Sequence record: KM389302.1
Origin: Escherichia phage CBA6
Direction: 5' to 3' (one strand)
DNA: 25,398 nt
The stretch's first letter is position 1, and every line of letters begins with the position of its first letter. Made by a program: the position numbers and the translations under genes. The notes below the pieces were generated by a model that had not been told where the DNA came from, ran no database searches, and worked only from the letters and a program-made list of their open reading frames with translations. This document shows, one piece after another, positions 20 through 24,957 of the stretch.

Positions 20-2152
20 TCAGTTCCAGATGGAGTGTCTCCCCACGACTAAACCACCAAATGGGAATACTTGTTGTGACTCAGTCGAAGACATTCTATT
101 TCTCATGTCTTGGGAAATACTGGTAGAAGTCAGATCACTGAACCATTCTTGTTTAACTGCCCAAGAATATAATACCAACGGCATAACGCAGTCGTCGTGA
201 CATCCATCATCTGCTTCATAACGCGCACCACGGAACACGAATGTGCTGAGTTCATCTATCGTGTCTTGATCTTCAATCACCAACATTTCTTTCTCAATAA
301 GCGCTTTCAGGTTAGCACAACCAATAGATCGCACTTTCCTGTTGGTGTTAATGCCTGGCTCTGGTTTACGACCACCAATCCGTTTCCCTGTCCCTTTGTT
401 ATCCGTCGACGTGAATATGATCTCTGGATACTCAATTTCTTGATACAAGATCGTGATAACCTGACCACCAACGTCGTTATTCGTCTCGACAAGGACAGGG
501 CATTCCCCGTATTCAGTACACATATCAGCTATCGTGTATGCATACATCATCGGAGGTATTGTATTGTTCCTGTACTTGGCCGCTATGACATGCGGGTATT
601 CCGTTATATCTAGAATTGTCAGAACCGAATAATCTCCTTCAACACCTTTCCCCGTATCTGCGATCCCGAAGTAGATGCGTTGCGGGTCATATTCCTTGTA
701 AATTTTGGTGAACTCATTAGGCTCTCGATATAACTTGGATGTCATTTTATCCAAGCATTTGGCTGGTATCAATGAACCTACAGAACCACGGAACTTGATT
801 CCAAATTCCTGGTCAAAACGGGCATCCCCCAGACGAGCGCGTTGTTTGGTTTCCCAATCAGGGTCTTTGGTGTACGCCGGAACCTTGTACCAAGGGACTT
901 CGGTAAGATGGAAATCGTTGTATTGTGGATGGCGCGGGTCTGCTTTGGTGACGATATCATAGAACAACCCTCGCTGGCCTTTCGGAGTACTGGTCAGAAT
1001 ACAACGTGAAGTATCGGCAGATGCGATCGCTGGGAATGTTGACTCCCAAAATTCAAAGTCATTTTCGATGAACGCGACTTCGTCCACGTACAAGAGAGAT
1101 ACAGAACGACCACGAATAGAGTCCGAAGACGTTGCATAAGCATATATCTTAGAGCCGTTCTCAAATTCTATCAGTGTAGAACCAAACTTCTCACAACCCT
1201 GCTGAAGGAAGAATGGGAGGTCCTGATACGCTTTCCTGATACGATCAAGAATTTCAATCGCTTGTTTCTCTTTGTTTGCCAGTACCGCGATTTCTTTGTC
1301 TGAGTGGAACATCGCATACCAAAGAAGAAACGCAGCCACGACCGTGGTATTATGGCTGAGGAACCCATTCGTGTAATAACGTTGATCGCTGGACTTGACT
1401 TGCAAGTCATACATGTGGTGGTACTCACCAGTCTCCCAGATCTCAGAGATGAATTCTATTCCCTCCTGGGTCATTATGGCATCTCCGGCCTCCATGTCTT
1501 TAGCAAATACTTCGCGCCCATATTCATTGAAGAACATGTGCTCATCTGCGACATGAATTGTGCGTCCGGTTTCAGTCCTGACCACGTATTCAGCGTATTC
1601 TTTCGTTTTATGAGCGGCAATAACCGGAACCCAGCCAGTGTCGGACTCAACAAAATATCGTTTCCCGAAACGGCTGTCTACAAACTTATTGTGGTTGCCA
1701 ATGGTATTCAGTGGCACAGCATGGTTCGGTCCTTCGAAGCGCTTGTGAAGCTCTTCTATGGTGAGATGCAACTCTTGTTGACTGACTGTATCATAGACAT
1801 AAACAAGAGTATCACCACGGACGCATTTACCGGACTGACGCGCCTGGACAACGGCATTGAAACGATAATCTTGAAAATCGTGAAATAATTGTTTCTGATA
1901 ATCATGCATATCGAAAAGGATAAAGCCTTTATCGATTGTCGTTATCTTGTAGTAATTGGCAGCGAAGTAATGTGCGTCCATTGAACATTCAACAAATTCG
2001 TCTTCTTGTTCATCTGTTAGCATCAACTCGACTCGTGGAGCGCGCACAGAAGGCTTGCGCATGAACGTCTGGTCCATACGCAATTTCACGTCGTCGATTT
2101 TAAACCCCGTTTTTATCGGAGCATATTCTATATCACGCTTCTGATACGCCAT
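20..2152 (-). CDS. terL: Terminase large subunit (T4 gp17-like ATPase/nuclease), interrupted in frame by a mini-intein
   Basis: 710-aa ORF. Walker A reads QARQSGK-[intein]-TTVVAAF, Walker B-like LLYVDEVAF, and LTSTPKGQRGLFYDIV resembles the T4 gp17 TTTPNG region. Start overlaps the end of the upstream small-subunit gene. Confidence 0.9.
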   Translation of the reverse strand: MAYQKRDIEYAPIKTGFKIDDVKLRMDQTFMRKPSVRAPRVELMLTDEQEDEFVECSMDAHYFAANYYKITTIDKGFILFDMHDYQKQLFHDFQDYRFNAVVQARQSGKCVRGDTLVYVYDTVSQQELHLTIEELHKRFEGPNHAVPLNTIGNHNKFVDSRFGKRYFVESDTGWVPVIAAHKTKEYAEYVVRTETGRTIHVADEHMFFNEYGREVFAKDMEAGDAIMTQEGIEFISEIWETGEYHHMYDLQVKSSDQRYYTNGFLSHNTTVVAAFLLWYAMFHSDKEIAVLANKEKQAIEILDRIRKAYQDLPFFLQQGCEKFGSTLIEFENGSKIYAYATSSDSIRGRSVSLLYVDEVAFIENDFEFWESTFPAIASADTSRCILTSTPKGQRGLFYDIVTKADPRHPQYNDFHLTEVPWYKVPAYTKDPDWETKQRARLGDARFDQEFGIKFRGSVGSLIPAKCLDKMTSKLYREPNEFTKIYKEYDPQRIYFGIADTGKGVEGDYSVLTILDITEYPHVIAAKYRNNTIPPMMYAYTIADMCTEYGECPVLVETNNDVGGQVITILYQEIEYPEIIFTSTDNKGTGKRIGGRKPEPGINTNRKVRSIGCANLKALIEKEMLVIEDQDTIDELSTFVFRGARYEADDGCHDDCVMPLVLYSWAVKQEWFSDLTSTSISQDMRNRMSSTESQQVFPFGGLVVGRHSIWN
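1349..1825 (-). other. Mini-intein (159 aa, Hint domain only) inserted in the terminase P-loop
   Basis: Insert begins with Cys straight after GK (codon tgc at 1823-1825 on the minus strand) and ends with His-Asn followed by Thr (codons checked at 1346-1354). C-terminal YDLQVKSSDQRYYTNGFLSHN matches intein blocks F/G. Removing it restores GKT. Too short to hold a homing endonuclease domain. Confidence 0.8.
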
Positions 2153-4181: not shown

Positions 4182-4188
4182 TATTTAG
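4182..4188 (-). promoter_or_regulatory. Candidate late promoter element CTAAATA (variant of T4 TATAAATA) upstream of the gp14-like gene
   Basis: Minus strand reads tgaCTAAATAcc 23 nt upstream of the ATG at 4158. The same heptamer recurs upstream of five other late genes. Confidence 0.4.
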
Positions 4189-4219: not shown

Positions 4220-4432
4220 ATGAAGGTTGAAGATATTAAAGAAACTCGTGACGGAAGGCGTGTGAGAATTATCTGTGTGGATGCTAAAGTCGCAAATAAT
4301 TCTTATAACATTGTGGGTCTTATTAAAGGCAAAGATGGGAATGATTTTATTGAATGGTGGGATGAAAAGAACGTGGTTGATGGTTATATTCTAGCAAATT
4401 CAAATCCTTCCGACCGTGACATCAAGTTATAA
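4220..4432 (+). CDS. Hypothetical 70-aa protein on the opposite strand, inserted between the neck genes
   Basis: GAGGA Shine-Dalgarno 9 nt upstream of the ATG at 4220. Stop is followed directly by the hairpin at 4438-4457. It is the only complete plus-strand gene in the module. Confidence 0.55.
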   Translation: MKVEDIKETRDGRRVRIICVDAKVANNSYNIVGLIKGKDGNDFIEWWDEKNVVDGYILANSNPSDRDIKL

Positions 4433-4437
4433 AAAGA

Positions 4438-4457
4438 AAGGCGGGTTATCCCGCCTT
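4438..4457. terminator. Bidirectional intrinsic terminator between convergent genes
   Basis: aaggcggg-ttat-cccgcctt, 8-bp GC-rich stem. On the minus strand it is followed by a U-rich tract (uucuuuuuau), directly after the gp13-like stop at 4461. Confidence 0.6.
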
Positions 4458-4460
4458 CTC

Positions 4461-5213
4461 TTATCCCATCATAAAATCGATAGGGTATTGCTGACCAGTA
4501 CGCAATTCTTCCTCCAACCGCTCTATCTCGGTCTCGGCCTCACTGAACATACTATCACCATCCAGTTCGATACCACCTGGGAGACGGATGCCTCTTGCCT
4601 TCTTAAGCACCTCTGCCCAACGGCGCTTAACCAATGCAGTCGCATACGCTTTCAACCACATGTCATTCCATGCTTCAGCGTTTTCTTCCGATTCGGGGTC
4701 GATATTCTGATAACAACGGAAAGCCAGAGTTTCATCAATGGTGGCAGCAAATTGCGGGTAAAGGCGTCGCTGGAACTTCTTGTACACAAAATTACGACGA
4801 ACATTCAAGACGCTTGTGATATCAGACAGGCGCTGTTGCATGGAAACGTAATCAATGAGACGAATAGACACAAGCGCCGCTTTTGGTACAAGCATGGCTT
4901 GGGCCATTTGCCATTGAGGAGTTGCCCAGTTTCCAATTGACTCAATAGGAGGTCCAGGGATAACTTCAATCACATCGTCAATATCTTCTGGGAATTCAAT
5001 ATAACCCTTGTCGATATCTTCTTGCTTAACTTGGTACAGGAAGAACGCATCTTGGCTACCGTCGCGATGATATTCCCAAAACTTCTGTAGAGCATCATCA
5101 ACAGCATCTTCTACTTGTGAACTGTCAAGGTTAATTTGGATGACCGGAGCGCCCAATTTACGCAAGACATAGTTCATAAAAGATTTCTTGTCGCGAATTT
5201 TATTGACGGCCAT
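4461..5213 (-). CDS. Neck protein (gp13-like)
   Basis: LRKLGAPVIQINL, WLKAYATALVKRRW and RLPGGIELDG...EIERLEEEL resemble recalled T4 gp13 segments. Chosen start is the ATG at 5213 with a GAGGGA Shine-Dalgarno; the longer listed ORF (from 5267) has no ribosome-binding site. Confidence 0.65.
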   Translation of the reverse strand: MAVNKIRDKKSFMNYVLRKLGAPVIQINLDSSQVEDAVDDALQKFWEYHRDGSQDAFFLYQVKQEDIDKGYIEFPEDIDDVIEVIPGPPIESIGNWATPQWQMAQAMLVPKAALVSIRLIDYVSMQQRLSDITSVLNVRRNFVYKKFQRRLYPQFAATIDETLAFRCYQNIDPESEENAEAWNDMWLKAYATALVKRRWAEVLKKARGIRLPGGIELDGDSMFSEAETEIERLEEELRTGQQYPIDFMMG

Positions 5214-5541
5214 TGTTATTCCCTCGTTGCTGCAAATCAGATACAGTAATCCGCAATGTGCGGACATCGTCTGATAGGCTGCTGCTATTGAGTTTTAACT
5301 CAGCCATATTTTGTTTGACATATGCGAGGTCTGTATTCATGATCGCCATGCGCTCACTCATGTCATTCACTTTTTGAAGGACCTGATCCATTTTATTAGA
5401 ATCTCGCTCCAATACATTCACGCGTGTTTCCATCCCACCCATAAACCAAAGGAACGACGCCGCCGAGACCAATGCAGAAGCCACGACAGCAGTCAAGATA
5501 CCACGGATATCAAGCCCAGATCTTTCAGCTTGCGTCGCCAT
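5200..5541 (-). CDS. Small protein with one N-terminal transmembrane helix and a coiled-coil C-terminal region
   Basis: 113 aa. Hydrophobic stretch ILTAVVASALVSAASFLWFMGG, then heptad-like charged sequence. Strong AGGAGG Shine-Dalgarno 5 nt upstream of the ATG. Overlaps the gp13-like start by 14 nt. Confidence 0.55.
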   Translation of the reverse strand: MATQAERSGLDIRGILTAVVASALVSAASFLWFMGGMETRVNVLERDSNKMDQVLQKVNDMSERMAIMNTDLAYVKQNMAELKLNSSSLSDDVRTLRITVSDLQQRGNNNGRQ

Positions 5542-5773
5542 TCTGACCTCCTTCGGGGATTTCTATCCCCAACTTTTCGGCCATCATTTTGATCGTCGCC
5601 TCCAGATTCGATATCTGGTTTGATTGTTCAACAATGGTGGCTTCACGGGTTTCGTTGCGTTGACGGGCTTGCAATGCAGCCATACCTGCAGCATGATCAG
5701 TACAAATGATCGCGCCTGGACAAGAACTGCTTCTCAACATGGATGCGTGCCCCTGTACTTTCATTCCACGCAT
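5525..5773 (-). CDS. Hypothetical small protein (82 aa from the internal ATG)
   Basis: The listed ORF start at 5812 is GTG with no Shine-Dalgarno. The ATG at 5773 (MRGMKVQ...) has GAGGA 6 nt upstream. Its end overlaps the next gene by 17 nt, suggesting translational coupling. Confidence 0.4.
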   Translation of the reverse strand: MRGMKVQGHASMLRSSSCPGAIICTDHAAGMAALQARQRNETREATIVEQSNQISNLEATIKMMAEKLGIEIPEGGQNGDAS

Positions 5774-5825: not shown

Positions 5826-8800
5826 TTATGCCAGAGCAATAAGACGGAAGTCTTTGAATGATGGAGGAGCAACGCGGTTCCCCCGTACAAGCGCTCGGAC
5901 TTTCAGGCCAACAAACGGGTTATTGCTCGCCACAGTCTTGTCGTATTCATATTCAAAGAATGTAGAACCGTCGTTGACCAGAGGCGACGTTGGAGTAACA
6001 TCTTCCCAAGCCACACTATCCATCTCCTGACCTGCTCTAAGAAGTTTCACCTGCACCTTCATAGAAGACTGAGATGGGAGCATTGCACCAAAGAACAACT
6101 TCACAGTCGAACATGGGTTATCAAATCCGATGTCTTTTGTAACATATTTGAAGACATCTTCAAATGGATCCACGCCGTATGAGTTGAAGATTACGCTCAG
6201 GTCATCGCCATCAATCATTGGAGCGGTGTACACGTTGTTTTCACTGCGCGTCATGGTGGCTCGGATCTGGAAATCCCCAACCTGACGATAGATCCCTTCA
6301 GTCGGCAACGCCACGTCAGTGTCAGTTTCAAATTCAGCCCAATCAGACATAGAATTGGAAGTAGCATCGCGATAGCGATATTCCAATTTCAGAATTGAAC
6401 CTTCCAGAGCTGAATTGGTGACACTGGCATAAAACATGTCAACCAGATAATTGCCCAAGAATGAAGCATTATCCCCGCCGATTTGCCCGTTGCTGTCTGC
6501 TGCTGAACCGACATCGATCTTGAATGAAGTATAGCTCGCATCTGTCACGGTAAATGTTTTGTTAAGTTGTTCAGGAGTAAATCCACAGCCACCTGTCAAT
6601 TCAGACAGAGTAACATTGTTCCCAGCAACCAAACCGTGACCAGGTGCAAACACGGTCACGACAGAAGACCCGCTCACACAGTTGAGAGTGTTCAATCCCA
6701 ACGGACGTTGTTTCGGTCCAAGTTTCGGATCAAATGTTACAACGTTCTGACCAGCAGCAAAGTTACAACGATAAACACGGAACTTCATATCTGCCATCTG
6801 GTTGGGAGACCATGTTGAACCGTTTGAAGAAGTGAAGAACACCCCTGTATACGGCTGCTTGGCGATATATTCGTTGGACAAAAGGTTTTTCTTGCCCATT
6901 TCCGCGATATATGCGTTGTAATCCTGAGTATTCGCCAACAAAACAATAGCAAACTCAGTCGATGCTTGCAAGTACACCGGATAATCGAAGGTGAACTTCG
7001 TTCCACCGGAAGAGTCTGTAGAGATCGTCACTTCAGACGGGTTCAAAGTTTTACGAGTTATGACGGTATGGGACGGTAATCCATTCTCCATCTCGCGAAT
7101 TTCCAGGGTGATCGGAACATCACGTGACTTGGTGGAGAAGAATACTTCCACGCCTTCGATATATTCACCACCGATCTTAGTTGCCACCATAAACGATTGG
7201 GCAATTGGATCACGCCATTGATCGACCACAACTTCAGAAGTGCTGGTTTCTGTGCTGGTGCTTGCGGTATAACCCAGAACACGAGTATTGACAAAGGTCT
7301 TTTGAATCCCTTGTTTCTTACCGAAAGACTTGTGAACAATTTCAGCATTAGTCAGCGTATCATCTGCAGATTTACTGTCAACAGGGCTATCCGTTAAGCG
7401 GAACACGTTGTCGCCTGTGTTGAATTTGATCGTATCATTCTGAGGAACGCGGAACACGCCTTTGACTGCGCCATTGGCATCAGTGGTGATTGGGTCACCA
7501 AAATTACCACCATTCGGCTTGCAATACAGATTCACATCACGACCTGAGAAGAATGCATACATGCGAGTGAAAGGTCGCAACCCAGAAGCGTCGAAAGAAA
7601 TATCAATTTCGCGCATGTATGGGATAACCTGCGTTTCCACAATCTGTTCGCCAGTCATGGTCGTGGTTGTTTTGTCCGTGTATGTGTATGTGGTGACATC
7701 ACGGGCAGAAACAGTCGTGCGATAGCGGTATCCCCACCACACACCACCAGCGCCATGCGGCTCCCAAACACGATCAGAAACAGAAACAGTACGCCACGTC
7801 CCGTACACCGAACCTTCTTGTACAGTACCACGAGTGTTGATCGTTTCATTGATAACACGCGGGGCGACATAGTAGTTTTCAAACCAGTAATCCGTGGTCG
7901 GGTTAATCTTCAAGAAACCTTCCCAGTTGAATACTGCATACGGGTTAACGTTGATCGTCGTCGTCGCGTATTCTTGGTTCACGGAGATTTCAGGCGTGTA
8001 GTTACAAACCACCATACCATCCATCACTTTGTTCCAGCCTACTGGAGTCATGTCAACGGCGTTCTGTTGAACAAACGGGCGCAAACGTCCATTTTCCGTA
8101 TCGATAGATCCCATCCAATCTTCAGACAGATCATCAATAAGACGGAAGTCTTTGAATGGATCGGCGGCGATACCGTTTTTGAATCGCGGATTACCCGTGA
8201 TTGGATCAAATACCTGTTGTGTCATCGCCGAAGATTCCAGCTGCGACAGAGAGGTGTAGTATTCAACGTTGGAAATACGCGTTTCCAGTTTACCGATATC
8301 ACGCATCGTATAACGACGGTTATCGATGGTGCGAATTTGTATATCATCGATATTCGGCGTGTATGGGGGAATCAACAGTTCATACAAACGCATGGAGTTT
8401 GCAGGTATTGCTGGGGACGCCAGGTTGTTGGAACTGATGCCACGGGCTACACCAAACACGCCATTATCTGCCAGATAAATCGCGTCGATACGAGGCAAAT
8501 AATACTCTGTGTCCAGGATGACAGCCGTATTCGGGCGAACCATATCAGTGTCGGATGTCCCGTTGGTAATTTTCGGACGGAAATCAAGGCTATCGGCCAA
8601 ACCATACACCGCCCCAGATGTAGAGGATGTATAATTCGGGATATCTTTGTAATCCATTGAAGTATACGAATCCGCTGAGAAGAAATCCCCCGAACTATGC
8701 GCGAAGTATTGATACACCACCGTATACGTCCCTGAAATGGCTCCAGCGGTGGATAACAGATTAGCCTTGTAATATCCCGCATCGCGTTGACCACCGTCGA

Positions 8801-10664
8801 GGATGAAGCTCGAAGTCACGTCCGCGCCAGTATCATTTTTGACAGATACCAATTTCCAGCCATCGTGATTTGCCAGAGGTCTACTGGTTTGGGAAGTAAA
8901 AGTCACAGACTCTGTGGTTTCAGTTATCGTCTTCGTTTTGATCGTGGCCGTAGTGCGGATCATCAGTGCCAGCAAATTGATTGACTGGTTAGCATTACCG
9001 CTACCCAGGGAAATCTGCAAAGCCGATCCCACCGGAGAACCAGTCAGTGACAAAGAGCCAGAGATATCAAATTGCGCTTCTGAACCATCGGATTTCGCAG
9101 AAGAATACAACGAAAATTCAGGAGAGAAACTATATCCCAGTGGGGCTGAAATAGAACCAGAACCGCTATTGTCCAGAGTGACTTTGTAAGTTCGGAGAAC
9201 GGTGTAGTTGATATCCACGGAACCTGTTGGCGCTAATGTTTTAACACCGAAGACCGGAAGAGAGAAGATCAGGTCTACCATAGAACTCTGGTTAAACTGG
9301 TTGGATTCCAGTTCAGCAGAGAACATGGTGATACCACTTTCTTCATAAGATACTTTGGTGATAGTGGACGCGTCCCCAGTCACAACCAAATCACGCATGT
9401 ACAGACGGAATTCAGTTGAATTGCGTTCAGCAGATATACACAACGCCGTGGCTTGAGCAGCTCCGGACGCGTTCAATAACTTGTATCGCACAGTGCGAGA
9501 TATTACTGGAACACCTTTGGAGTTCTTGGTGACCAGATAATTCCCTGTAGCGACTGCAACAGGCGTGTTATTCAGGACATCGGTATCCCGTGCCTTGTCA
9601 ACGATCACCAACTCTTCCCCGACGTTTTCGATACGACGACCGCGAACATAGGAAATACCTGGTTTCATTACAGACACGAATTTACTTTCGTCGCCGCCAT
9701 CAGCAGCATTGAATACACCACCATTGTTATTGACTTTCAAGTGTTCGCGGATGTCGATCTGATGCGTTGAAACGTTGTAATCGCCGTTGGTTTCATACGT
9801 CCGTTGAGCCAACGTGTCTTCCAGAATATTATAGGTGGACTGAGTCACCATAGACTGGATTTTACCATCACGAACTTTGGCCAGTTCAACAAAGTCTTCA
9901 ACCACAGCATCATAATCAAATCGAGATAAGACCAGATCTATTCGAAGACGATGAGCGCCTGGGGCTTTGGAATTAATCGTTCCCTGAGCATTTGAATAAA
10001 GGGATTCGTCTTCAGATTCAGTCACGATGGTTTCAGTGACTTTAAACCCGACGCGATGGGAAGAAGTGTTTGAAGTTTTATCGACGATGAGAGTCGCGTC
10101 ATCAACATCAAGGAACATTCCACGAATGAAGTAAACGCCCTTCGTCATACGAGCGACGATAGAACCAGTCACCGCAGCTGCGATACCATAACCAATACGA
10201 ATGAAGTTGTCATTGACGTCATAGGTTTGGAAATACAGATTGTCGTTGACGTGGAAGCCATCTGCATTACCCACTTCTGTCATTTCAAGGATGGCCAACA
10301 TCGTATCCGGAGCAGACAGATCACGTTCAAGAGATAGCACACGCGCTTTGGCGTTATTGTCTTTTCCCAGAACATAAAGTTCAGTAATCCCTTCCAGATC
10401 AGTGAACTCAGTGCCACCAGCCAGGGTGAATTTCATAGACACAGCGGCGTTGGTAATCGTCAGACCGCCAGGAATAACCATAGATCCATCTTTGAACAGA
10501 TGGTTTCCCAGCTTTTCAATCTGGTCTTGCAGAATAGTCTGCATCTGGTTCAGTTCACGTGTCTGAACCTTAATAGGCATCGGGCGAAAAAGAATCCGTG
10601 AAAACCGTTTTCCAGGATTCCAGTCGTCCCAATACGGGCGACGGTTTAGATTTGTAGATTGCAT
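5826..10664 (-). CDS. Very large virion structural protein (1612 aa), probably a tail fibre or baseplate component; function not assigned
   Basis: Uninterrupted 4.8-kb ORF in the late module. GGAG 9 nt upstream of the ATG, with CTAAATA and TATAAAT motifs further upstream. S/T/N/G-rich composition typical of fibrous phage proteins. No confident homologue recalled. Confidence 0.6.
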   Translation of the reverse strand: MQSTNLNRRPYWDDWNPGKRFSRILFRPMPIKVQTRELNQMQTILQDQIEKLGNHLFKDGSMVIPGGLTITNAAVSMKFTLAGGTEFTDLEGITELYVLGKDNNAKARVLSLERDLSAPDTMLAILEMTEVGNADGFHVNDNLYFQTYDVNDNFIRIGYGIAAAVTGSIVARMTKGVYFIRGMFLDVDDATLIVDKTSNTSSHRVGFKVTETIVTESEDESLYSNAQGTINSKAPGAHRLRIDLVLSRFDYDAVVEDFVELAKVRDGKIQSMVTQSTYNILEDTLAQRTYETNGDYNVSTHQIDIREHLKVNNNGGVFNAADGGDESKFVSVMKPGISYVRGRRIENVGEELVIVDKARDTDVLNNTPVAVATGNYLVTKNSKGVPVISRTVRYKLLNASGAAQATALCISAERNSTEFRLYMRDLVVTGDASTITKVSYEESGITMFSAELESNQFNQSSMVDLIFSLPVFGVKTLAPTGSVDINYTVLRTYKVTLDNSGSGSISAPLGYSFSPEFSLYSSAKSDGSEAQFDISGSLSLTGSPVGSALQISLGSGNANQSINLLALMIRTTATIKTKTITETTESVTFTSQTSRPLANHDGWKLVSVKNDTGADVTSSFILDGGQRDAGYYKANLLSTAGAISGTYTVVYQYFAHSSGDFFSADSYTSMDYKDIPNYTSSTSGAVYGLADSLDFRPKITNGTSDTDMVRPNTAVILDTEYYLPRIDAIYLADNGVFGVARGISSNNLASPAIPANSMRLYELLIPPYTPNIDDIQIRTIDNRRYTMRDIGKLETRISNVEYYTSLSQLESSAMTQQVFDPITGNPRFKNGIAADPFKDFRLIDDLSEDWMGSIDTENGRLRPFVQQNAVDMTPVGWNKVMDGMVVCNYTPEISVNQEYATTTINVNPYAVFNWEGFLKINPTTDYWFENYYVAPRVINETINTRGTVQEGSVYGTWRTVSVSDRVWEPHGAGGVWWGYRYRTTVSARDVTTYTYTDKTTTTMTGEQIVETQVIPYMREIDISFDASGLRPFTRMYAFFSGRDVNLYCKPNGGNFGDPITTDANGAVKGVFRVPQNDTIKFNTGDNVFRLTDSPVDSKSADDTLTNAEIVHKSFGKKQGIQKTFVNTRVLGYTASTSTETSTSEVVVDQWRDPIAQSFMVATKIGGEYIEGVEVFFSTKSRDVPITLEIREMENGLPSHTVITRKTLNPSEVTISTDSSGGTKFTFDYPVYLQASTEFAIVLLANTQDYNAYIAEMGKKNLLSNEYIAKQPYTGVFFTSSNGSTWSPNQMADMKFRVYRCNFAAGQNVVTFDPKLGPKQRPLGLNTLNCVSGSSVVTVFAPGHGLVAGNNVTLSELTGGCGFTPEQLNKTFTVTDASYTSFKIDVGSAADSNGQIGGDNASFLGNYLVDMFYASVTNSALEGSILKLEYRYRDATSNSMSDWAEFETDTDVALPTEGIYRQVGDFQIRATMTRSENNVYTAPMIDGDDLSVIFNSYGVDPFEDVFKYVTKDIGFDNPCSTVKLFFGAMLPSQSSMKVQVKLLRAGQEMDSVAWEDVTPTSPLVNDGSTFFEYEYDKTVASNNPFVGLKVRALVRGNRVAPPSFKDFRLIALA
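5837..5860. repeat. 24-nt exact direct repeat, copy 1 (caataagacggaagtctttgaatg), at the 3' end of the 1612-aa gene
   Basis: Identical 24-mer also at 8135-8158. Encodes the FKDFRLI motif at the protein C-terminus. Confidence 0.85.
8135..8158. repeat. 24-nt exact direct repeat, copy 2, internal to the 1612-aa gene
   Basis: Identical to 5837-5860. Encodes the internal DPFKDFRLID motif. Confidence 0.85.
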
Positions 10665-10696: not shown

Positions 10697-10703
10697 TATT
10701 TAG
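10697..10703 (-). promoter_or_regulatory. Candidate late promoter element CTAAATA (with adjacent TATAAAT) upstream of the 1612-aa gene
   Basis: Minus strand reads tataCTAAATAtctcTATAAATggcactcgatggagcatcaaaATG. Confidence 0.4.
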
Positions 10704-10757: not shown

Positions 10758-12719
10758 TCAACCGATTGTGAGATTAAATTCCATTTCTGTTACGACTGCA
10801 GATGGATTGTATAACGTAATTGTCCACGAAAAATCGTTAGTTTTCGAAATGACACAATATCTTCCTGTGCCTGGGGAACTAAAAGATGCCGCTAATTTAT
10901 TCATGCTTGTAAATGAATTTATCACCCAAACACCAGGAGATGTCTTCGTTACCGAACAATTAACTGCACTCGTCAGAGCACCAGAACCATTTACAATCAC
11001 TGATATTGGTTCGTCCAGAATTCTAACCACTCCGGAGTTTAATGAATATGAATTCATAACAGTTCCAATACGATTTCCCTGTAAATATGTGATGGCAGTA
11101 GAAGCCAGTCCCGTTCTATTCAACAATACATTTGTAACTCCCAAACCAGTACAACCCAATATTTGTGTGTCAGACACTAATCCAGACGTGGTGCTGGTTT
11201 GTTCACAAACCGCGTCCACAACATTACTACCGTTGTAACAATTGAAAGATACATTTATCAATTTATTTCGTCGTATTGATTTGCCTGCATTAGATTGTAT
11301 CTGTAATACACGGTTATATTGGCCAGGTGTATTAATCTGCACAAAACAATTTTGAATAACATTGTCATAACTATCAGTTAATGAAACGTTATGGTCAGAA
11401 ATACCGAAAGCAGATTTATAATCTCCATTATTGTTCATTTGAATAAAAACACCTTCAACGGTGTTATTGCTACAACCTTGTATTGCTATGACGTGGTCAT
11501 TCCCGTTAAATGCTCCTGCGGAAATAGAAACAAATTTACCACCAATGATTTTGCAGCCAGAACAACCTCTGGAAAATTTGATATTATTGTTGCCGCCAAC
11601 GACACCACCGACGTCGCCCAAATTAGCAGAACTCATTATTCCTTCACAATTTATGAATTGGAAATCTGTGGTTGGGAATCCAACACCATCTGCTGACGTC
11701 CCATGGAAATTAATCAATAACCCATTTTCCGCATAACCTTCAGATACATAGCCACCTTTACAACCCAGAACCTCCATATTCCCGCCAGCTTGAGAAACTC
11801 CAACGAATCTCGGATATGTGATTTCTGGGTACAATGCACCTATAATAACAAGGTTCCCGTGATTTGGTCCTTTAAAACCTGTATTTTCAAATACACATTT
11901 GTTAGACCTAACCCCAACACGCCGAGAATTATCAGTTGAACCATAAGATGTGTTCCCCAATCTTAATGGGGTTACTGTTGCTGTGGTTGTCGTGAAGACT
12001 ACACCCGAAACTTCAGTATAATTTCCTGTTAATTCGATAGCCCCTTTATTCGTGTCAAACGAATTCCCCAACAAATTGATTTTGTTTCCGTTGCCAATGA
12101 TGCGTTTACTGTCTAAATTGTTCACCACGTTGCTCGACAACCCAACATCTATATCTAAAATGATCGTATTATACACATTTAGAAGATCATTCAATATATT
12201 TGAAACGTCTTCGCCAGAAGAAACCCAATTAGATATGTATGTTTCTTTCTCGCCAATATTATTTTTTACAAAAATCCAAGCTGAACCAGAAATACCACCA
12301 GTATTTTCCAACTTTTGGGTAGAGGGAACAATTTTTGGAAGAGACCCACCCCAACGATAAAAACAATTATTATGGCGTATCATTTCATTCTTAGTACGGA
12401 TTGTAAACCCATCTGAAAACTCTTCCGTCATTTCGATAAATTCGCCGCGCAATACAGCCAGCGCACCCAAATCTACAGTGCCTCCGGAGTGCGTGAGGAT
12501 GCCGTCGACTAAACTAGTGACCGTTACAGCACCAATGTTAGAAGGAAGAGCATAGGCACGTTGGGTCACCTTATCGTAGATCACTTTATAACCAGACAAG
12601 GACTGCCCTGATTTCGCATAAACGACTTCCGACTTTTTACACCCAAATTTACGAGCAATACTGTCTTTGTTCGATTCTTTTGAAGTAGAACCTTTTGGTT
12701 GAGCAAATTGCGGATTCAT
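10758..12719 (-). CDS. Tailspike protein, putative polysaccharide depolymerase (653 aa)
   Basis: N-terminal module (ARKFGCKKSEVVYA...YKVIYDKVTQRAY...YRWGGSLPK) is shared with the other tailspikes. The rest is N/G/S/T-rich with short repeats typical of a parallel beta-helix. AGGAG Shine-Dalgarno. Confidence 0.7.
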   Translation of the reverse strand: MNPQFAQPKGSTSKESNKDSIARKFGCKKSEVVYAKSGQSLSGYKVIYDKVTQRAYALPSNIGAVTVTSLVDGILTHSGGTVDLGALAVLRGEFIEMTEEFSDGFTIRTKNEMIRHNNCFYRWGGSLPKIVPSTQKLENTGGISGSAWIFVKNNIGEKETYISNWVSSGEDVSNILNDLLNVYNTIILDIDVGLSSNVVNNLDSKRIIGNGNKINLLGNSFDTNKGAIELTGNYTEVSGVVFTTTTATVTPLRLGNTSYGSTDNSRRVGVRSNKCVFENTGFKGPNHGNLVIIGALYPEITYPRFVGVSQAGGNMEVLGCKGGYVSEGYAENGLLINFHGTSADGVGFPTTDFQFINCEGIMSSANLGDVGGVVGGNNNIKFSRGCSGCKIIGGKFVSISAGAFNGNDHVIAIQGCSNNTVEGVFIQMNNNGDYKSAFGISDHNVSLTDSYDNVIQNCFVQINTPGQYNRVLQIQSNAGKSIRRNKLINVSFNCYNGSNVVDAVCEQTSTTSGLVSDTQILGCTGLGVTNVLLNRTGLASTAITYLQGNRIGTVMNSYSLNSGVVRILDEPISVIVNGSGALTSAVNCSVTKTSPGVWVINSFTSMNKLAASFSSPGTGRYCVISKTNDFSWTITLYNPSAVVTEMEFNLTIG

Positions 12720-12750
12720 AATAAGAATCTCCTGTTTTTCTCTAGTAAAT

Positions 12751-12767
12751 ACCCTCCGAAGAGGGGT
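12751..12767 (-). terminator. Hairpin with a UUCG tetraloop between the 926-aa and 653-aa genes; possible attenuator or weak terminator
   Basis: Minus-strand RNA folds as accccuc-uucg-gagggu, followed by only a weak U tract. Confidence 0.35.
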
Positions 12768-12773
12768 ATATTT

Positions 12774-15554
12774 TTAAATAGAAGAATCCAATATACGGTA
12801 ACTAATTAACTTATTAGGGTCTACAGGATTAATCAGGTTGTAGTACCGTGAAGCTACATAATCATTCTCAGAAGAGAACATACCAACATACACTTTAGCA
12901 CCTACACCAGAACAGGCATCCCCACCAGCATTGCTATCCGAGAAGAATGTTAATGAAGAAGTTAATCCGAATATAGAATTAAATGGTACAGCTAAATAAG
13001 CGCCTCGGAATGACCGTCTGATTCTCTTACCCGTCTGAATATTAAGAATACTCCACCAGAAATATCCAGGTTTAGCACCAATAGCTATATGATATGGCAC
13101 ACCACTTTGTAGTTTAAGGTCGTTAGGTAAATCCCCAGATAAAATTTGGGTTGTACCATCGCCCCCCAATAGCAAAGCAATTGTTTGTTTTCCGGAAGCG
13201 TCTATAACTAATTGAAGATGAAGACTGTTGGATGTATCACTAAACCCTGAACCAATGGCCATGAAGTTAAATACTTCAGCTCCAGATATGGTAGGTACTA
13301 CAACAGCAGCCATGGTAATACCTTCTGGACCTGCTGTTCTTGAGTACAGTAATTTATCTTTGTTGGCTTGTGATAGTCTCAGACCATTTACTTGCCCTAC
13401 AGAAGATGGGACACTTACATAAACAGGTGTAGTGCTAACACCATCAAATGTAGGGGTCTCGTTCATGGTTTGCAAACCAGTCTTGGAATAATTAACCAAT
13501 CCGTTAATGCTCAGGTCGGAATTTGTGGGGTTGATAATATTGTTATCACCAATAAAGTTAATGCCCATATAACCAGTCTCAACCACACCATTAATGGTGA
13601 CGCTGCAATCATTAGACAGGAACTGAAAATTGCCCGCACTAGAGTTAGCACCTGAACCACTATTCGCGGCATAATTGAGTCCTACGAATCCGTTGATAAC
13701 TGCATCACTTTTGTTAAATACGATGTTGTAGAAAGTGTTGTTAGCGTTGATGCCGTTACGATTGGTGTTCAATCCGTTCATGGAAATTGAATATGAATCG
13801 CTAATCTCAATGCCATTCCCGCCACAATCTTGTACCTCAATACCATTAATAACCATATTCTGGCTATTATTAATAGTAATGCCTGGGAACTGTCCTACTG
13901 TACCATAAGGTTGCCAGTTAGCCCAAATGAATTTACCACCAATAATACGACCATTACCACAACCATCAAGAACCAGACATTGTTTACCGCAGGTATTAAC
14001 CTGGATATTTGTCCAAGTCCAATCAGTAGTAGCACAACGGACGCCCACCTGATTGATGTGGTTGACTAAAAGAGAATCTGTAGTAACACTAAAGTTACCA
14101 CTATCAATATTTAACCCATATTCATCAAAACCTGCTATATGGACCTTAGAAATACACAAGTCGCGTCTTGGGTCTGCGGTAGTGTGGAACGGATAATCAG
14201 CTGAGAGACCTGAAGGAGTTTCTATATAGATACCTGTTGTACCCGCAGTAAATGATGTGCCTTGTTGTGCACCTGTGCCATATACCCCAAAGGAGTCTAA
14301 TACAATAAGGGAGCATGTATCTTTTATGGTAATACAATTCCCAGTAGCAGAAGGCAACTGATGCAACCTGGAGTAATGTAATCCAGACCCATAAATAGAC
14401 GACGTATTATATTTTAACCGGATATTGCTAACGTAATGTACACCAGTTAATTGTGTGGCCTTACCACTGTCCACACAAGATTGTACTGGAATAGTATCAT
14501 CATTAGAACCGCCCAAAGCACCAAACATGAATGGGTTAACTCTATCAGCATTAACACGTAACCAGGCTGCGCCTCCAACAGTTTTGATCACAGTGCCGTT
14601 ATCATCAGTCTTTCCTGTACCATCAATTAACGCACGGAATACCCCTCCACCAAGAAGAGTACCCGCAGTGTGTTGCTTAAGAATAATGCGTTGTCCATCC
14701 ATAGTGGGTTCAGTATTCCTGAGATCAGCAACAGAATGGCATTCTCCGATATACTTGGCACCATCATTGCGCCCCAGAGTGTTTATCACATTAATAAATG
14801 AATCTTCTAAAGGCAACAAATCCACTACAACATTACCTGGATTATAAGTAAGTTGCCCATTACTAACAGAAGAAATCACTGAACCATCAGGGATAGTTGG
14901 TAAACCATAAATAATCTGCGCCGCTGAATCATAAACAACTTTCTTGTCGTCGAGTAAAGATATGGTATCAGTGCTGACAATGACTTCAGAGTCTTTTACG
15001 TTAGCCGAACGGGCAATTTCTTGGATACTGCGATCGAACGCCGGACTGATGTTCGGTTGTTTAACAGACATCTCCGCAACAACCCACACCCCTGCAGTCA
15101 GCGCAGTTTGTAAGGAAACTTTCCCAGTCGTACTGTTGTATGAATATTCTATATCAGGAGTTTTGTACTCACCACCGATATAAAGAGACTGGACACCATA
15201 AGAAGTAAAGTCAGGCGTGAATTCAGTTTCTCCACCCACGGCTTGAAATTTGTATATTCGAATACCTTTAGAAGTATCTTCTGGTGAAAGAATTTTATCG
15301 AATAAGCAATACACAACATCGCCTTTGGACAATGCGCGCCCGAGATTCAACGTATTCCCGTCTATCTCGAAGTTGTCTAACGGAACTTGCATGCCGCCGT
15401 TAATTGTGATAACACCAGTGACAGGATAGAAAGGTAGAGAAAAGAAAGTTTCTCCACCGACACTTGATTTATAAGTGAAAGGAATCTGGTGGGGAGCTGT
15501 GACTACGCCGCCGAATAATTCTTCTACATTTCTGGTCATTTGAAAATACCCCAT
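12774..15554 (-). CDS. Tailspike protein with a T7 gp17-like N-terminal anchor domain and beta-helix body (926 aa)
   Basis: N-terminus IPFTYKSSVGGETFFSLPFYPVTGVITINGGMQVPLDNFEIDGNTLNLG fits the pattern of podovirus tail-fibre N-terminal anchors. Central region has tandem NG-rich beta-helix coils. The start may instead be the second ATG at 15539 (MTRNVEE...). Confidence 0.7.
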   Translation of the reverse strand: MGYFQMTRNVEELFGGVVTAPHQIPFTYKSSVGGETFFSLPFYPVTGVITINGGMQVPLDNFEIDGNTLNLGRALSKGDVVYCLFDKILSPEDTSKGIRIYKFQAVGGETEFTPDFTSYGVQSLYIGGEYKTPDIEYSYNSTTGKVSLQTALTAGVWVVAEMSVKQPNISPAFDRSIQEIARSANVKDSEVIVSTDTISLLDDKKVVYDSAAQIIYGLPTIPDGSVISSVSNGQLTYNPGNVVVDLLPLEDSFINVINTLGRNDGAKYIGECHSVADLRNTEPTMDGQRIILKQHTAGTLLGGGVFRALIDGTGKTDDNGTVIKTVGGAAWLRVNADRVNPFMFGALGGSNDDTIPVQSCVDSGKATQLTGVHYVSNIRLKYNTSSIYGSGLHYSRLHQLPSATGNCITIKDTCSLIVLDSFGVYGTGAQQGTSFTAGTTGIYIETPSGLSADYPFHTTADPRRDLCISKVHIAGFDEYGLNIDSGNFSVTTDSLLVNHINQVGVRCATTDWTWTNIQVNTCGKQCLVLDGCGNGRIIGGKFIWANWQPYGTVGQFPGITINNSQNMVINGIEVQDCGGNGIEISDSYSISMNGLNTNRNGINANNTFYNIVFNKSDAVINGFVGLNYAANSGSGANSSAGNFQFLSNDCSVTINGVVETGYMGINFIGDNNIINPTNSDLSINGLVNYSKTGLQTMNETPTFDGVSTTPVYVSVPSSVGQVNGLRLSQANKDKLLYSRTAGPEGITMAAVVVPTISGAEVFNFMAIGSGFSDTSNSLHLQLVIDASGKQTIALLLGGDGTTQILSGDLPNDLKLQSGVPYHIAIGAKPGYFWWSILNIQTGKRIRRSFRGAYLAVPFNSIFGLTSSLTFFSDSNAGGDACSGVGAKVYVGMFSSENDYVASRYYNLINPVDPNKLISYRILDSSI

Positions 15555-15640
15555 AAAGGATTTGCCAATATGGGGTATTTAGTCTGAACTAATAAAATTT
15601 TATGAACAAAGGTATGATAAAAACCCCGCCGAAGCGGGGT
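15548..15640. repeat. About 90-bp intergenic cassette, copy A
   Basis: Near-identical to 17678-17770. Contains a palindrome (aaatacccca / tggggtattt), the CTAAATA motif, and the UUCG-loop terminator. Confidence 0.8.
15576..15582 (-). promoter_or_regulatory. Candidate late promoter element CTAAATA upstream of the 926-aa tailspike gene
   Basis: Minus strand reads cagaCTAAATAcccc, 21-36 nt upstream of the candidate ATGs. Confidence 0.4.
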
Positions 15641-17706: not shown

Positions 17707-17713
17707 TATTTAG
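17707..17713 (-). promoter_or_regulatory. Candidate late promoter element CTAAATA upstream of the 675-aa tailspike gene
   Basis: Minus strand reads cagaCTAAATAcccc, 33 nt upstream of the ATG at 17673. Confidence 0.4.
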
Positions 17714-17964: not shown

Positions 17965-20900
17965 GTACTAACGAAATCAAATTCGTGAAGAGCCATTGAA
18001 CCTGATGATATTCTTGCATCTAGTAAGGTGCCATCAATGGAAATTAACTTTTTATTCGCAATTGTTCCTATAAGAACACCATTACTAAAAAACTGAACTA
18101 TACCAGGTCCTTTACCGTTGTATTTAGCGGTTAAAGCGCCCTTCATTGGAGCTGAAGGTAAAGCAATGACGGTCTCTACTCCAGCAACGGATATAACACC
18201 ACGTATATCACTCCCTGTATTAAATCTGAATCCGAAATAGTTTCCTGATTCGAAACTTCCGGAATGTAATAGTCCTCCTGGTATGTTTTGCATGCTCCAT
18301 GCGATACTAAAGGCGCGGTAGTTGTTTGTCTCAAACTCATACGTTAATCGATGTTTTCTTGTTACACGATACCGACAAGTTCCACCAGAACTTGCTGCTT
18401 GCATATATAACCCATCATCCTCGAAATAAGTAAATGTGTCCGCAGGCTGAACTGTTGTTTTAGTGAATTTATCATGGTCCTGGAAAAGTGTATGGTAATG
18501 CGTTATGTCGTGGCGAGCGAATGCGTTCACACCCATGATTGTTTTAGATGCTTGTTCTATAATAAAACCAGCCATAACGCCATCAGAATACATTTGCGCT
18601 TTTTGACCAATAACAGGATGAAAATCATTCGCGATAATAGCCCCACCAATCGGCAGCGCGACATATTCGGTTAGCACCCCAGATGCTGGTGGTAGATTAT
18701 CAAGTTGGGTGCTGTTATAGTTAATAATACCGCCGTGTTTTGTTACTAATCCTGCCTTATTTATCGCGTTTCCAAATTGCGGCGATTCAACGCTTATTGT
18801 ACTGTTGTAAGCCTCAATGCATTTATCGACGCCTACGCCGTTGAATGATGGTTGAAATACGCCACCGCTGGTGCAGCCATAAAATTCAATGGATGCGTTT
18901 TCGTCAGAATGCGTGCGCCCCTTGAAGTTAATCTGTTCAATAGATGGTGAATATGGGGTTCCGCCACAGTTGAACAGTTGAATAGAGTTAAGGCTAACTT
19001 TGCTTGGGTCTGCTGACCTGCTCCCAATTTTTATTCCGGCTTGCTGGCTTGAACTAGGAGGGAACAATGGCGTACACCCACGCTTACTGCGAACAACGAC
19101 ATCCTCAGGAGTACCGGTGTTGCCGTAATTATCTGCAATACTAATTACAATTCGCTGCCAGTAATTGTTTGGAATGGCATCAACGGCATCTTGTACAGTG
19201 GGGTAATCTTCCGGAACCATGAGTGTTACAGGCATCGTGTAAATACCTGGCACTGTTGACGAGTTAACACCAAATGGGTGAATGTAACCACGATACGGAT
19301 CATTACCTCCGATAGTATTGATAAACCCTTCGATGCGCACTTTTGATGTATCAGTGTACAGATATCCACACTCGCCAATATCTACGCGGAACTTCGCAGG
19401 GATAGTCAGATCTTCTGTAAATTTCACTGGAACATTGACAAAAACACGACCATTACCAGAAGCTATGGCGCGTTTGAAAGCCTGCGTGTAGTCTGGTGCC
19501 GCTGGGTCTCCTGGCTCAACAAATGCGCGAAGGTCATAAAGTCTTTCCTGCTGACCGCCAGGGATTAAAAAACCTTTATCTCCTGTTAATTCAGTTCTTA
19601 ATGATGCATCACCAACGCTAACCCATGCACCTAAACCAACGCCGCCAGTTGTTGTCGGAGTTGAGCCAGGAGCCACAGTTTTAGGAAGTGTCCCATCCCA
19701 ACGATACTTACCGTTCGTATGGGTGAGTAATTCATTTTTAACATTGATAACAGCACCAGAATCAAATGTCCCAGACAAGGTAACATATTCTTCACGAGAT
19801 ACAGCTAATGCGCCCAGATCAACACTACCAGCAGAATGCACAAGTACAGCCGAAGAACTAAGGCTGACTGCCGTGGTTCCAGTCGGTAGCTCTGGAATAA
19901 AATATGATCTCTGTGTTACTTTATCATAGATAACTTTATACCCGCTTAACACCGCACCAACACTAAAATAAACAACCTCTGTATCTTTAACATTGGTTAC
20001 ACGAGCCACTTCCCGCAAAGTATAATCAATTTGATTATAGATGTTTGGCGTTCCATTGATAATTACAACAACTTCATCCTCTGCATCCAGTTCTTGCGCA
20101 AGAGTGATTTTACTGGTTAATGGATCAAATGTGAACCCCAGATTTTTATACTGGCGACTTCCGTTTATATCAATGGCCGGAACATCATCGACAACGATGT
20201 CTAACGTGATTTCGGTTTCACCACCAATCGCAGAACCCCCATTATAGACCCAGGTAATCGTAGAAGAACTAGAACCACCGCCATTACCCAATTGAATAGG
20301 AGTATATTCAATCACCTGAAGTTCTGTGCTGGCTGGCAAAGAAGGACTGAAAGTGATCACATTCCCATCTAGTGAATATTTGGATTCCGCAAGACGTTTT
20401 CCGTCAGCATACACGTCCACGATTGTTGGTGGCGTATTGAGAGTGACAGCGCTTGTTTCAGACGCCAAAATTTGTGTAAAAATCTCACGACTGTAGACAC
20501 GGCCTTGGCCAAGGCCGACGCCGGATGTGACAACCCAACCTTGTTCAGGCCCAGACCAAGTGAAAGTCGCCGACACGTTATCGGTGGATATCGTCATATC
20601 TTCGGTGGAGCCGTAAAGGTTATTTCCCGCTGGAGATACAGTCAATGGGTAAGTGGCGAATTTTCCATAAGCATCACAAATAGTAACGGAATCCCCAACA
20701 CGTGTAGGGGGAGGGAGAACCACTGTAGATGCCCCTGTGGTGTTATTAATGAGATAGCCGCGACCTTCTAACAAATTGCTAGAGGGAGCGTGAGGGAGCG
20801 TTTCCCAGCGTATTCCACCGCCCCCCCAAAGACAACCAACCACCGTTTTCGTAATAACCTTCAAATTCATCGCTATCAGGATTGTAACGTACAGAAGATG

Positions 20901-21088: not shown

Positions 21089-21095
21089 TATTTAG
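21089..21095 (-). promoter_or_regulatory. Candidate late promoter element CTAAATA upstream of the gp10-like core tailspike gene
   Basis: Minus strand reads aaaaCTAAATAcccctagatgacatgaatacatttaggggtattacaaATG, with a tacccct(a) / (t)aggggta palindrome. Confidence 0.4.
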
Positions 21096-24950: not shown

Positions 24951-24957
24951 TATTTAG
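24951..24957 (-). promoter_or_regulatory. Candidate late promoter element CTAAATA upstream of the gp6-like gene
   Basis: Minus strand reads ctttggCTAAATAtcttc, about 40 nt upstream of the ATG at 24910. Confidence 0.35.

Follow-up and report, generated by a model that had tools for sequence, protein, structure and literature searches.

In bacteriophage T4 the late gene order is 12-wac-13-14-15-16-17, and the gene directly upstream of gene 13, wac, encodes fibritin, the collar and whisker protein of the neck, to which the T4 wac record ascribes a part in attaching the long tail fibres. Electron microscopy has shown a collared neck in ViI-like phages too, the collar measuring 20 x 2 nm in phage LIMEstone1. 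The DNA analysed here, a stretch of 25,398 nucleotides (nt) from Escherichia phage CBA6 (KM389302.1; hereafter the window), carries a comparable late module in the order tailspikes-VrlC-s1-s2-gp13-gp14-gp15-terS-terL, in which the place of wac is taken by s2, the second of two small genes designated s1 and s2. A first-pass annotation, made from the letters of the window, had pointed out two overlapping small genes between a gene of 1612 amino acids (aa) and a gp13-like gene, where T4 has fibritin; the genes, their overlap of 17 nt and the position of wac directly upstream of gene 13 in T4 are all upheld. The reading favoured here, with a probability of roughly 0.38, is that the s2 product is an accessory protein of neck/fibre morphogenesis, a probably trimeric coiled coil with a hydrophobic anchor, and is co-produced with gp13. 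The features on which this reading turns include predicted transmembrane (TM)-like and signal-anchor-release (SAR)-like elements and are as follows:

5200..5541, minus strand: s2, 113 aa, hydrophobic anchor and coiled coil (Vi01_167c, CBA120 orf206, Marshall_44; phrog_3961, E 8e-62)
5431..5502, minus strand: uncharged, weakly hydrophobic TM-like or SAR-like segment of s2, residues 14-37 (hydropathy, alignment)
5227..5430, minus strand: heptad coiled coil of s2, residues 38-105 (alignment, AlphaFold2 (AF2) model, heptad register)
5525..5773, minus strand: s1, 82 aa, ATG start, predicted beta-meander and helix (phrog_4322, E 4e-47; phrog_473, E 3e-5)
4461..5213, minus strand: gp13-like neck protein, head-tail adaptor Ad2 (phrog_211, E 2e-43)
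5826..10664, minus strand: VrlC/VriC, DUF4815 virion protein of 1612 aa, heading the apparent operon (Pfam DUF4815, E 5e-60)

The matches to phrog_4322 and phrog_3961, together with the 282 phage records recovered for each gene by tblastn, identify s1 and s2 as real genes rather than chance open reading frames (ORFs). The s2 match covers residues 2-113 and the s1 match spans the entire 82-aa form, which was taken as the gene product in preference to a GTG-extended alternative (95 aa, start 5812) because the homologues and the PHROG profile all begin at MRG. For both genes the 282 records belong to Ackermannviridae, s1 corresponding to Vi01_168c, CBA120 orf208 and Marshall_43. The s1 stop (5527-5525) lies downstream of the s2 ATG (5541), giving the 17-nt overlap, and the s2 stop (5202-5200) overlaps the gp13 start (5213) by 14 nt, an arrangement kept in every lineage examined: Kuttervirus, Taipeivirus, Miltonvirus and two Vibrio phages. 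Over the 2-kb region around the pair, identity to Escherichia phage Sa157lw, Salmonella phage Vi01 and other Kuttervirus genomes lies at 99.6-99.8%, with 99.3% for Marshall, and on nucleotide identity the source of the window is a Vi01-like Kuttervirus (Ackermannviridae). The two genes are a core Ackermannviridae pair, already sequenced yet uncharacterised, and the earlier view that a membrane protein inside the neck/tail module is unexpected is softened by this family-wide conservation.

The s2 product combines an N-terminal hydrophobic helix with a coiled coil, as had been proposed from the translation and is borne out by hydropathy and heptads. Residues 14-37 (GILTAVVASALVSAASFLWFMGGM) are uncharged and 50% Gly/Ala/Ser/Thr, with a Kyte-Doolittle (KD) mean of 2.06 over 19 residues and Hessa free energies (dG) that sum to about 0, the TM call being made on a hydropathy basis only. 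A single heptad register with nearly all a and d positions hydrophobic extends from residue 16 to 103, running through the hydrophobic segment, and the AF2 model is a single helix spanning residues 12-108 at a low predicted local distance difference test score (pLDDT) of 59. Across 16 aligned homologues (60-70% identity overall, with one at 96%) the hydrophobic character of the segment is kept, V25, S26, W32, M34 and G35 being invariant, and among the closer genera 24 of the 31 columns of residues 74-104 (YVKQN..LK.NS.SLSDDVRTLR.TV...Q) are invariant. Set against the 60-70% identity of the whole protein, this largely invariant C-terminal coiled coil points to a conserved partner. The s1/s2 pair also occurs in Miltonvirus, Nezavisimistyvirus and two Vibrio phages, where gp13 identity is 40-48%, and the distant s2 homologues there retain both an uncharged N-terminal segment of 20-24 residues (KD 1.5-2.1) and the coiled coil. 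In 20/20 homologues examined, the segment of 20-24 uncharged residues is 45-54% Gly/Ala/Ser/Thr and is flanked on both sides by a net charge of about zero with no positive-inside bias, flanks that give no indication of membrane orientation.

An exhaustive profile search of 1.8 billion representatives returned only four clusters of true s2 relatives at 50% identity, which on sequence grounds marks s2 as an Ackermannviridae-specific protein. Weaker profile matches, which were not treated as homologues, are 'DVxxLK' heptad coiled coils of mixed kinds that include TM-anchored and XhlA-like proteins. Searches of Pfam, PHROGs and NCBIfam for a family assignment of s2 gave only generic coiled-coil noise (COG3_N, Prominin, SpiroCoCo, Rad50), and word-indexed searches found close relatives only. 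A separate 189-aa protein of phage vB_Sen_ST2 (OR710291.1, 60186-60755), annotated as a virion structural protein, carries a strong N-terminal TM-like segment (KD 2.67), indicating that a hydrophobic anchor alone does not rule out a virion-protein annotation in this family.

On the minus strand, the order of genes in the direction of transcription begins with gp6, a gp7-like wedge, a 396-aa protein, four tailspike/fibre genes and the 1612-aa DUF4815 gene (VrlC/VriC), and continues with s1, s2, gp13, a small opposite-strand ORF, gp14, gp15, terS and an intein-containing terL; the gp13 annotation is present in the Vi01, CBA120 and Marshall records. The signals that appear to bound the transcription unit containing s1 and s2, and the other coding-strand copies of the motif concerned, are listed here:

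10697..10703, minus strand: CTAAATA late-promoter-like motif, 33 nt 5' of the VrlC start (motif scan)
10750-10735, minus strand: intrinsic terminator directly before the CTAAATA of VrlC (terminator search)
4437..4458, minus strand: intrinsic terminator closing the VrlC-s1-s2-gp13 unit, right after the gp13 stop (9-bp stem with 6 G-C pairs, then a T-run)
4182-4188, 10697-10703, 15576-15582, 17707-17713, 18121-18127, 21089-21095 and 24951-24957, minus strand: CTAAATA copies on the coding strand

The terminator at 4458-4437 is the next intrinsic terminator on the minus strand after that at 10750-10735, and one at the equivalent site is annotated in Marshall and in Magnus, where it is bidirectional. 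CTAAATA also precedes gp14 and occurs nine times in the window against 3.7 expected, with 7/9 copies on the coding strand and six of those seven just 5' of a gene start. In the relative EspM4VN, CTAAATAcCcc has been described as a regulatory motif (PMC7283392). The motif looks like the late promoter core of the family and would delimit the late transcription units of the tailspike/neck module. With CTAAATA before VrlC and a terminator after gp13, VrlC-s1-s2-gp13 looks like one four-gene late operon in which s1 and s2 are the second and third genes, a reading inferred from motifs and not from RNA.

The two outer members of this predicted operon, VrlC and gp13, are abundant virion proteins. Mass spectrometry of LIMEstone1 virions identified 39 proteins, among them gp13, gp14 and a 177-kDa VrlC homologue, and did not detect ORF155 and ORF156, the counterparts of s1 and s2; VrlC was found both in these virions and in those of AG3. 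In Sajous1 virions, VrlC gave 311 spectra, gp13 gave 33 and an entry named 'gp142 putative virion structural protein' gave 2. The Sajous1 GenBank record lists gp142 as a 113-aa 'hypothetical protein' and gp141 as a 'putative structural protein', so the label of the two-spectra entry is ambiguous between s1 and s2. Good tryptic peptides are available in s2, for example MAIMNTDLAYVK, LNSSSLSDDVR and ITVSDLQQR. The absence from LIMEstone1 and the at most two spectra in Sajous1 fit an s2 protein that is mostly not retained in the virion. Literature searches retrieved nothing on the function of DUF4815.

The gene or genes lying between s1 and gp13 differ by lineage, the slot being filled by s2 in Ackermannviridae and by wac in T4. 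Cyanophage ACG-2014f carries in this slot a gene annotated 'L-shaped tail fiber protein assembly' together with an 85-aa ORF, Xanthomonas phage X1 has an ORF of 69-72 aa that is not TM-like, and in Sinorhizobium phage phiM7 a 'tail fiber assembly like protein' directly precedes gp13. It is mainly because fibre-helper genes recur in this slot, an argument from position and from the annotations of others, that a morphogenetic role is favoured for s2. The placement in a late operon with two abundant virion proteins, the overlap with gp13 and a partner, s1, that is annotated as virion structural argue for an assembly role as well.

When the s2 profile was compared with all Protein Data Bank (PDB) sequences, the top match was to the last coiled-coil segment of T4 fibritin (1avy, E 0.006), with a trimeric autotransporter adhesin in second place (E 0.018). 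Both are trimeric coiled coils, suggesting that s2 may be trimeric too. This match gives weak sequence support for a trimeric coiled coil with a polar core and for the positional analogy with wac, rather than for homology. No significant homology to fibritin was seen over the segmented coiled coil or the N-terminal neck-binding domain, with only 28 residues aligning. Nor was a foldon found in s2, which ends eight residues past the coiled coil; the fibritin alignment stops at residue 455, before the foldon, and the AF2 model contains helix only.

A further protein of the window bears on the name fibritin in these phages. The 396-aa protein beside the gp7-like wedge (21098-22288, minus strand) seems, by position and size, to be the counterpart of the LIMEstone1 protein labelled 'Fibritin (T4 Wac)', which was detected at 50% mass-spectrometry coverage. 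Pfam gives the 396-aa protein only a sub-threshold match to BppL_N, no relation was found between s2 and this protein, and its fibritin label looks doubtful.

Under the favoured reading, s2, a single helix of about 90 residues, would be made in step with gp13 by means of the stop/start overlap. Its hydrophobic end would be anchored in a protein complex or at the inner membrane, while the conserved end of the coiled coil would bind a conserved phage partner, which may be gp13/gp14, s1 or VrlC. The protein would then help neck or fibre/tailspike assembly, acting as the functional counterpart of the fibre-assembly helpers found in the same slot of relatives, such as wac in T4, and little or none of it would stay in the virion. 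Several points weigh against such a role. Why a neck/fibre assembly factor would need a membrane anchor is not obvious, and the literature searched contains no experiment on s2. The argument from gene position is weak, with the fibre-assembly labels in relatives being annotations only. By BLASTP, s2 residues 70-97 align with fibritin residues 428-455 at 12/28 identities (E 0.007), and the hhalign probability for the two proteins is 1.8%, so the resemblance may be that of generic coiled coils. The phiMAM1 homologue of s2 is labelled 'putative capsid protein', an unconfirmed label, and given this and the possible detection in Sajous1, s2 could be a true low-copy virion component. Kuttervirus annotations also lack a holin. 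To our knowledge, the only T4 parallel for membrane-linked assembly is the membrane-associated start of head assembly.

The alternative closest to an assembly role is that s2, possibly with s1, is a lasting part of the particle, forming the collar of Vi01-like necks as a mini fibritin analogue whose trimeric coiled coils ring the gp13/gp14 neck, its hydrophobic N-terminus buried in a protein interface and not in a membrane. We consider this unlikely, although it draws on the exact wac position, on fibritin as the best PDB sequence match, on heptads that continue through the hydrophobic segment and on flanks that show no positive-inside bias in any homologue. It would also supply a protein for the collar seen by electron microscopy, to which no protein is assigned in the literature searched for ViI-like phages; no cryo-electron microscopy structure of an Ackermannviridae neck was found in those searches either. 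The annotation of s1 as a virion structural protein, the unconfirmed phiMAM1 label and the two spectra of the ambiguous Sajous1 entry point the same way. However, s2 has neither the foldon nor the N-terminal domain of fibritin, both small proteins are missing from the 39 LIMEstone1 virion proteins despite the good tryptic peptides of s2, the Sajous1 count is low as well as ambiguous, and an uncharged 24-residue helix with a KD value of 2.06 is more typical of a membrane anchor.

If the segment is indeed a membrane anchor, roles in lysis or in protection of the cell come into consideration. As a lysis protein, s2 would be either a class III holin with a single transmembrane domain (TMD) like T4 T, or a SAR-anchored antiholin or lysis-timing regulator, expressed late from the neck operon. 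No holin was found in Sa157lw, ECML-4 or ViI according to the Sa157lw paper, nor in AG3 according to its own, and the lysis genes of these phages are dispersed. A census of hydropathy over the first 150 kb of the vB_Sen_ST2 genome (156 kb) found no TM neighbour for the 264-aa endolysin, its three upstream ORFs having no TM segment, and an Rz-like spanin is annotated in the same genome away from the s2 locus. T4 gene t, which follows the tail-fibre genes, is comparably placed. SAR endolysins and RI are characterised by a weakly hydrophobic N-terminal segment rich in Gly/Ala/Ser/Thr, a composition that the single TM-like segment of s2 shares at 45-54%, and s2 further offers a strong Shine-Dalgarno (SD) site and predicted late expression. 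Set against this, s2 matches no holin family (Pfam to E 1, PHROG to E 0.01, NCBIfam to E 1) and is not beside the endolysin, the name 'Holin' given in UniRef to its YX22 homologue is an unverified automatic label, and holins do not typically show translational coupling to a neck protein or a coiled-coil end that is mostly invariant. The census also revealed small proteins with two TMDs elsewhere in OR710291.1, of 69 aa (138923-139132), 63 aa (50553-50744) and 98 aa (12574-12870), which look like Kuttervirus holin candidates and, by their predicted topology, more holin-like than s2. The 69-aa protein clusters with spanins, a LysM protein, a 'superinfection exclusion' gene and an SPFH lipoprotein; it is found only in Kuttervirus records and is never annotated as a holin. 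A lysis function for s2 is improbable, and so, by a shade more, is the specific proposal that s2 is the holin of Vi01-like Kuttervirus phages or its lysis-timing partner, coupled to gp13 and held by a SAR-like anchor. The wider search for a lysis cassette suggested by the first-pass annotation located spanins in Marshall, found no TM neighbour of the endolysin in vB_Sen_ST2 and yielded candidates only for the holin. A protective factor acting late at the inner membrane or in the periplasm, in superinfection exclusion or against lysis from without, would suit a protein specific to one phage family, and the bitopic topology proposed for s2 resembles that of T4 Sp or HK97 gp15. Such genes are, however, usually early or moron-like and variable, whereas s2 is core (282 genomes), late and coupled to gp13, and a separate gene is already annotated for superinfection exclusion in these phages, making this role very improbable. 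Least credible, and effectively dismissed, is an Rz-like i-spanin with s1 or another gene as its partner. The N-terminal TM-like segment followed by a coiled coil is i-spanin architecture, and the s2 homologue P0042 weakly matches phrog_739 'Rz-like spanin' (E 2e-4), but the s2 of the window itself has no spanin PHROG match at E <= 0.01. In Marshall, Kongari et al. identified a separated spanin pair at 82.2-83.2 kb (Marshall_94/95), with an i-spanin of 228 aa and an o-spanin of 108 aa; the Marshall GenBank record agrees (82,196-83,208) and places the s2 homologue at 45.3 kb, about 37 kb away. Inside s2 there is no other ORF of at least 30 aa on the coding strand, and no embedded, overlapping or adjacent ORF with a lipobox. 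The i-spanin topology offered by the first-pass annotation for s2 was rejected because the curated pair lies elsewhere and no o-spanin lipoprotein partner exists at the s2 locus, while its companion judgement that s1 is not an obvious o-spanin held, s1 lacking a signal sequence, a lipobox and any hydrophobic leader (KD maximum 0.91).

The junction between s1 and s2 contains a predicted hairpin and the ribosome-binding site of s2:

5555..5570, minus strand: hairpin GGGGAU-AGAA-AUCCCC in the 3' end of s1, 2 nt 5' of the s2 SD (dG -8.3 kcal/mol)
5547..5552, minus strand: AGGAGG SD of s2, 5 nt 5' of the ATG (read from the sequence)

Both elements had been noticed at the outset and the hairpin is present at 5570-5555 as described, but the AGGAGG had been placed at 5541, which is the A of the s2 ATG, the SD itself occupying 5552-5547. 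A ribosome-binding site for s2 is annotated at the equivalent position in Marshall and Magnus. The hairpin sequence encodes the conserved G-I-E-I-P of s1, and its stem of 5-6 bp is kept in Kuttervirus, Taipeivirus, Agtrevirus and Limestonevirus and absent in Miltonvirus and the Vibrio phages. Its outer pair shows a G-C to C-G swap at two synonymous sites, and 4/6 pairs are invariant, all of them in codons that specify the conserved G-I-E-I/L-P peptide. No significant covariation was seen, 95/500 shuffles reaching the same score, and perfect 6-bp hairpins are common, each strand of the window containing 68 where shuffled sequences give 41 +/- 8. Although real, the hairpin does not stand out statistically; it may aid presentation of the s2 SD or tune the coupling. 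In Serratia phage Kevin (Miltonvirus; L008, about 1090-1122) a different stem is predicted upstream of the s2 start (dG -8.1) and involves part of the s2 SD in its pairing, hinting at lineage-specific coupling of s2 translation to s1.

The AF2 model of s1, built from 28 sequences, predicts a three-stranded beta-meander (residues 3-24) and a helix (residues 27-68) at a pLDDT of 83. A Foldseek search of the PDB with this model gave 0 matches, and a search of BFVD returned small uncharacterised proteins of cyanophages, Delftia phage PhiW-14, Pseudomonas phage pf16, Acidovorax phage ACP17 and Vibrio phage VAP7. By sequence, the phrog_473 relatives of s1 are found in Vibrio phage D510 and Xanthomonas X1-like phages, and no relation to T4 wac was found. 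In cyanophage ACG-2014f, X1 and an X1-like metagenomic contig, an s1-like gene directly follows a giant structural protein or a neighbour of the DUF4815 protein and precedes gp13. The s1-like genes are located as follows:

L027 1453-1677: s1-like gene of cyanophage ACG-2014f
L012 1653-1853: s1-like gene of Xanthomonas phage X1
L010 1439-1627: s1-like gene of Vibrio phage D510

The description of s1 as a virion structural protein is an annotation label only. Small s1-like proteins, with a KV.G...R...G.(I/V)VNT(D/N) beta-meander and a helix, are widespread in distant T4-superfamily phages and uncharacterised, and the giant fibre or DUF4815 protein may be their partner.

Two neighbouring genes are of separate interest. 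The large terminase ORF (20-2152, minus strand; 710 aa) has a Pfam Intein_splicing match between terminase N-terminal parts, and an intein in the large terminase was likewise reported in the Marshall genome paper. Between gp13 and gp14, a 70-aa ORF on the opposite strand (Vi01_165, Marshall_46; about 4226-4438, plus strand) adjoins the terminator at 4437-4458, and at this gp13/gp14 spot the LIMEstone1 authors described an insertion that carries a promoter and a terminator of its own.

The Ackermannviridae, including Vi01, CBA120, LIMEstone and their relatives, are widely used as biocontrol and therapy phages, and s2, as a core, family-specific and presumably strongly expressed late gene with a membrane-type anchor in the fibritin slot, is a cheaply testable candidate for a neck collar or holin role. 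A membrane-tethered assembly helper, if confirmed, would represent an unusual link between the inner membrane and neck/fibre assembly in a T4-type phage, while a holin or timing partner would tie lysis competence to the expression level of late structural genes. Should neither role hold, s2 would be one more conserved hypothetical gene.

Among known systems, the lambda Rz-type i-spanins are, like s2, small, with an N-terminal transmembrane helix, predicted in s2, followed by a helical coiled-coil domain, but s2 has no o-spanin partner gene, does not lie in a lysis locus and gives no family match. T4 holin T (class III) and the SAR-anchored antiholin RI resemble s2 in having a single hydrophobic segment at the N-terminus, in the placing of the rest of the protein on one side of the membrane, predicted in s2, in late expression, in belonging to lysis genes dispersed through a T4-like genome and in the SAR-like Gly/Ala/Ser/Thr richness of the anchor. 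In contrast to these proteins, s2 shows no sequence or family similarity, is far smaller than T, has a plain coiled coil as its extramembrane part and is coupled to gp13. PBSX XhlA (PF10779) and other 'DVxxLK' membrane-anchored coiled coils are also short phage proteins that pair heptads with a single TM helix, however the TM helix of XhlA is C-terminal and the s2 segment N-terminal, limiting the likeness to the coiled-coil level; XhlA is absent from the Pfam matches of s2 to E 1, while the relative P0042 matches it at E 0.047. The partner gene s1 finds its nearest parallel in the phrog_473 'virion structural protein' genes of cyanophages, Xanthomonas X1-like phages and Vibrio Ackermannviridae, with which it shares a K-V-x-G-H/Y...R...G-A/V-I/V-V/I-N/C-T-D/N beta-meander followed by a helix and a location directly after a giant fibre or DUF4815 protein and before gp13. 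The Kuttervirus s1 differs from them in its greater length (82 aa), two conserved cysteines and a C-terminal LGIEIPxGG tail. T4 fibritin, finally, matches s2 in its gene position, directly before gp13 within a late module of T4 type, and in a parallel coiled coil, predicted in s2, whose core layers are polar (N/S); fibritin is a protein of 487 aa with a neck-binding N-terminal domain and a foldon, whereas s2 has 113 aa, neither of these domains and a TM-like hydrophobic N-terminus that fibritin does not possess.

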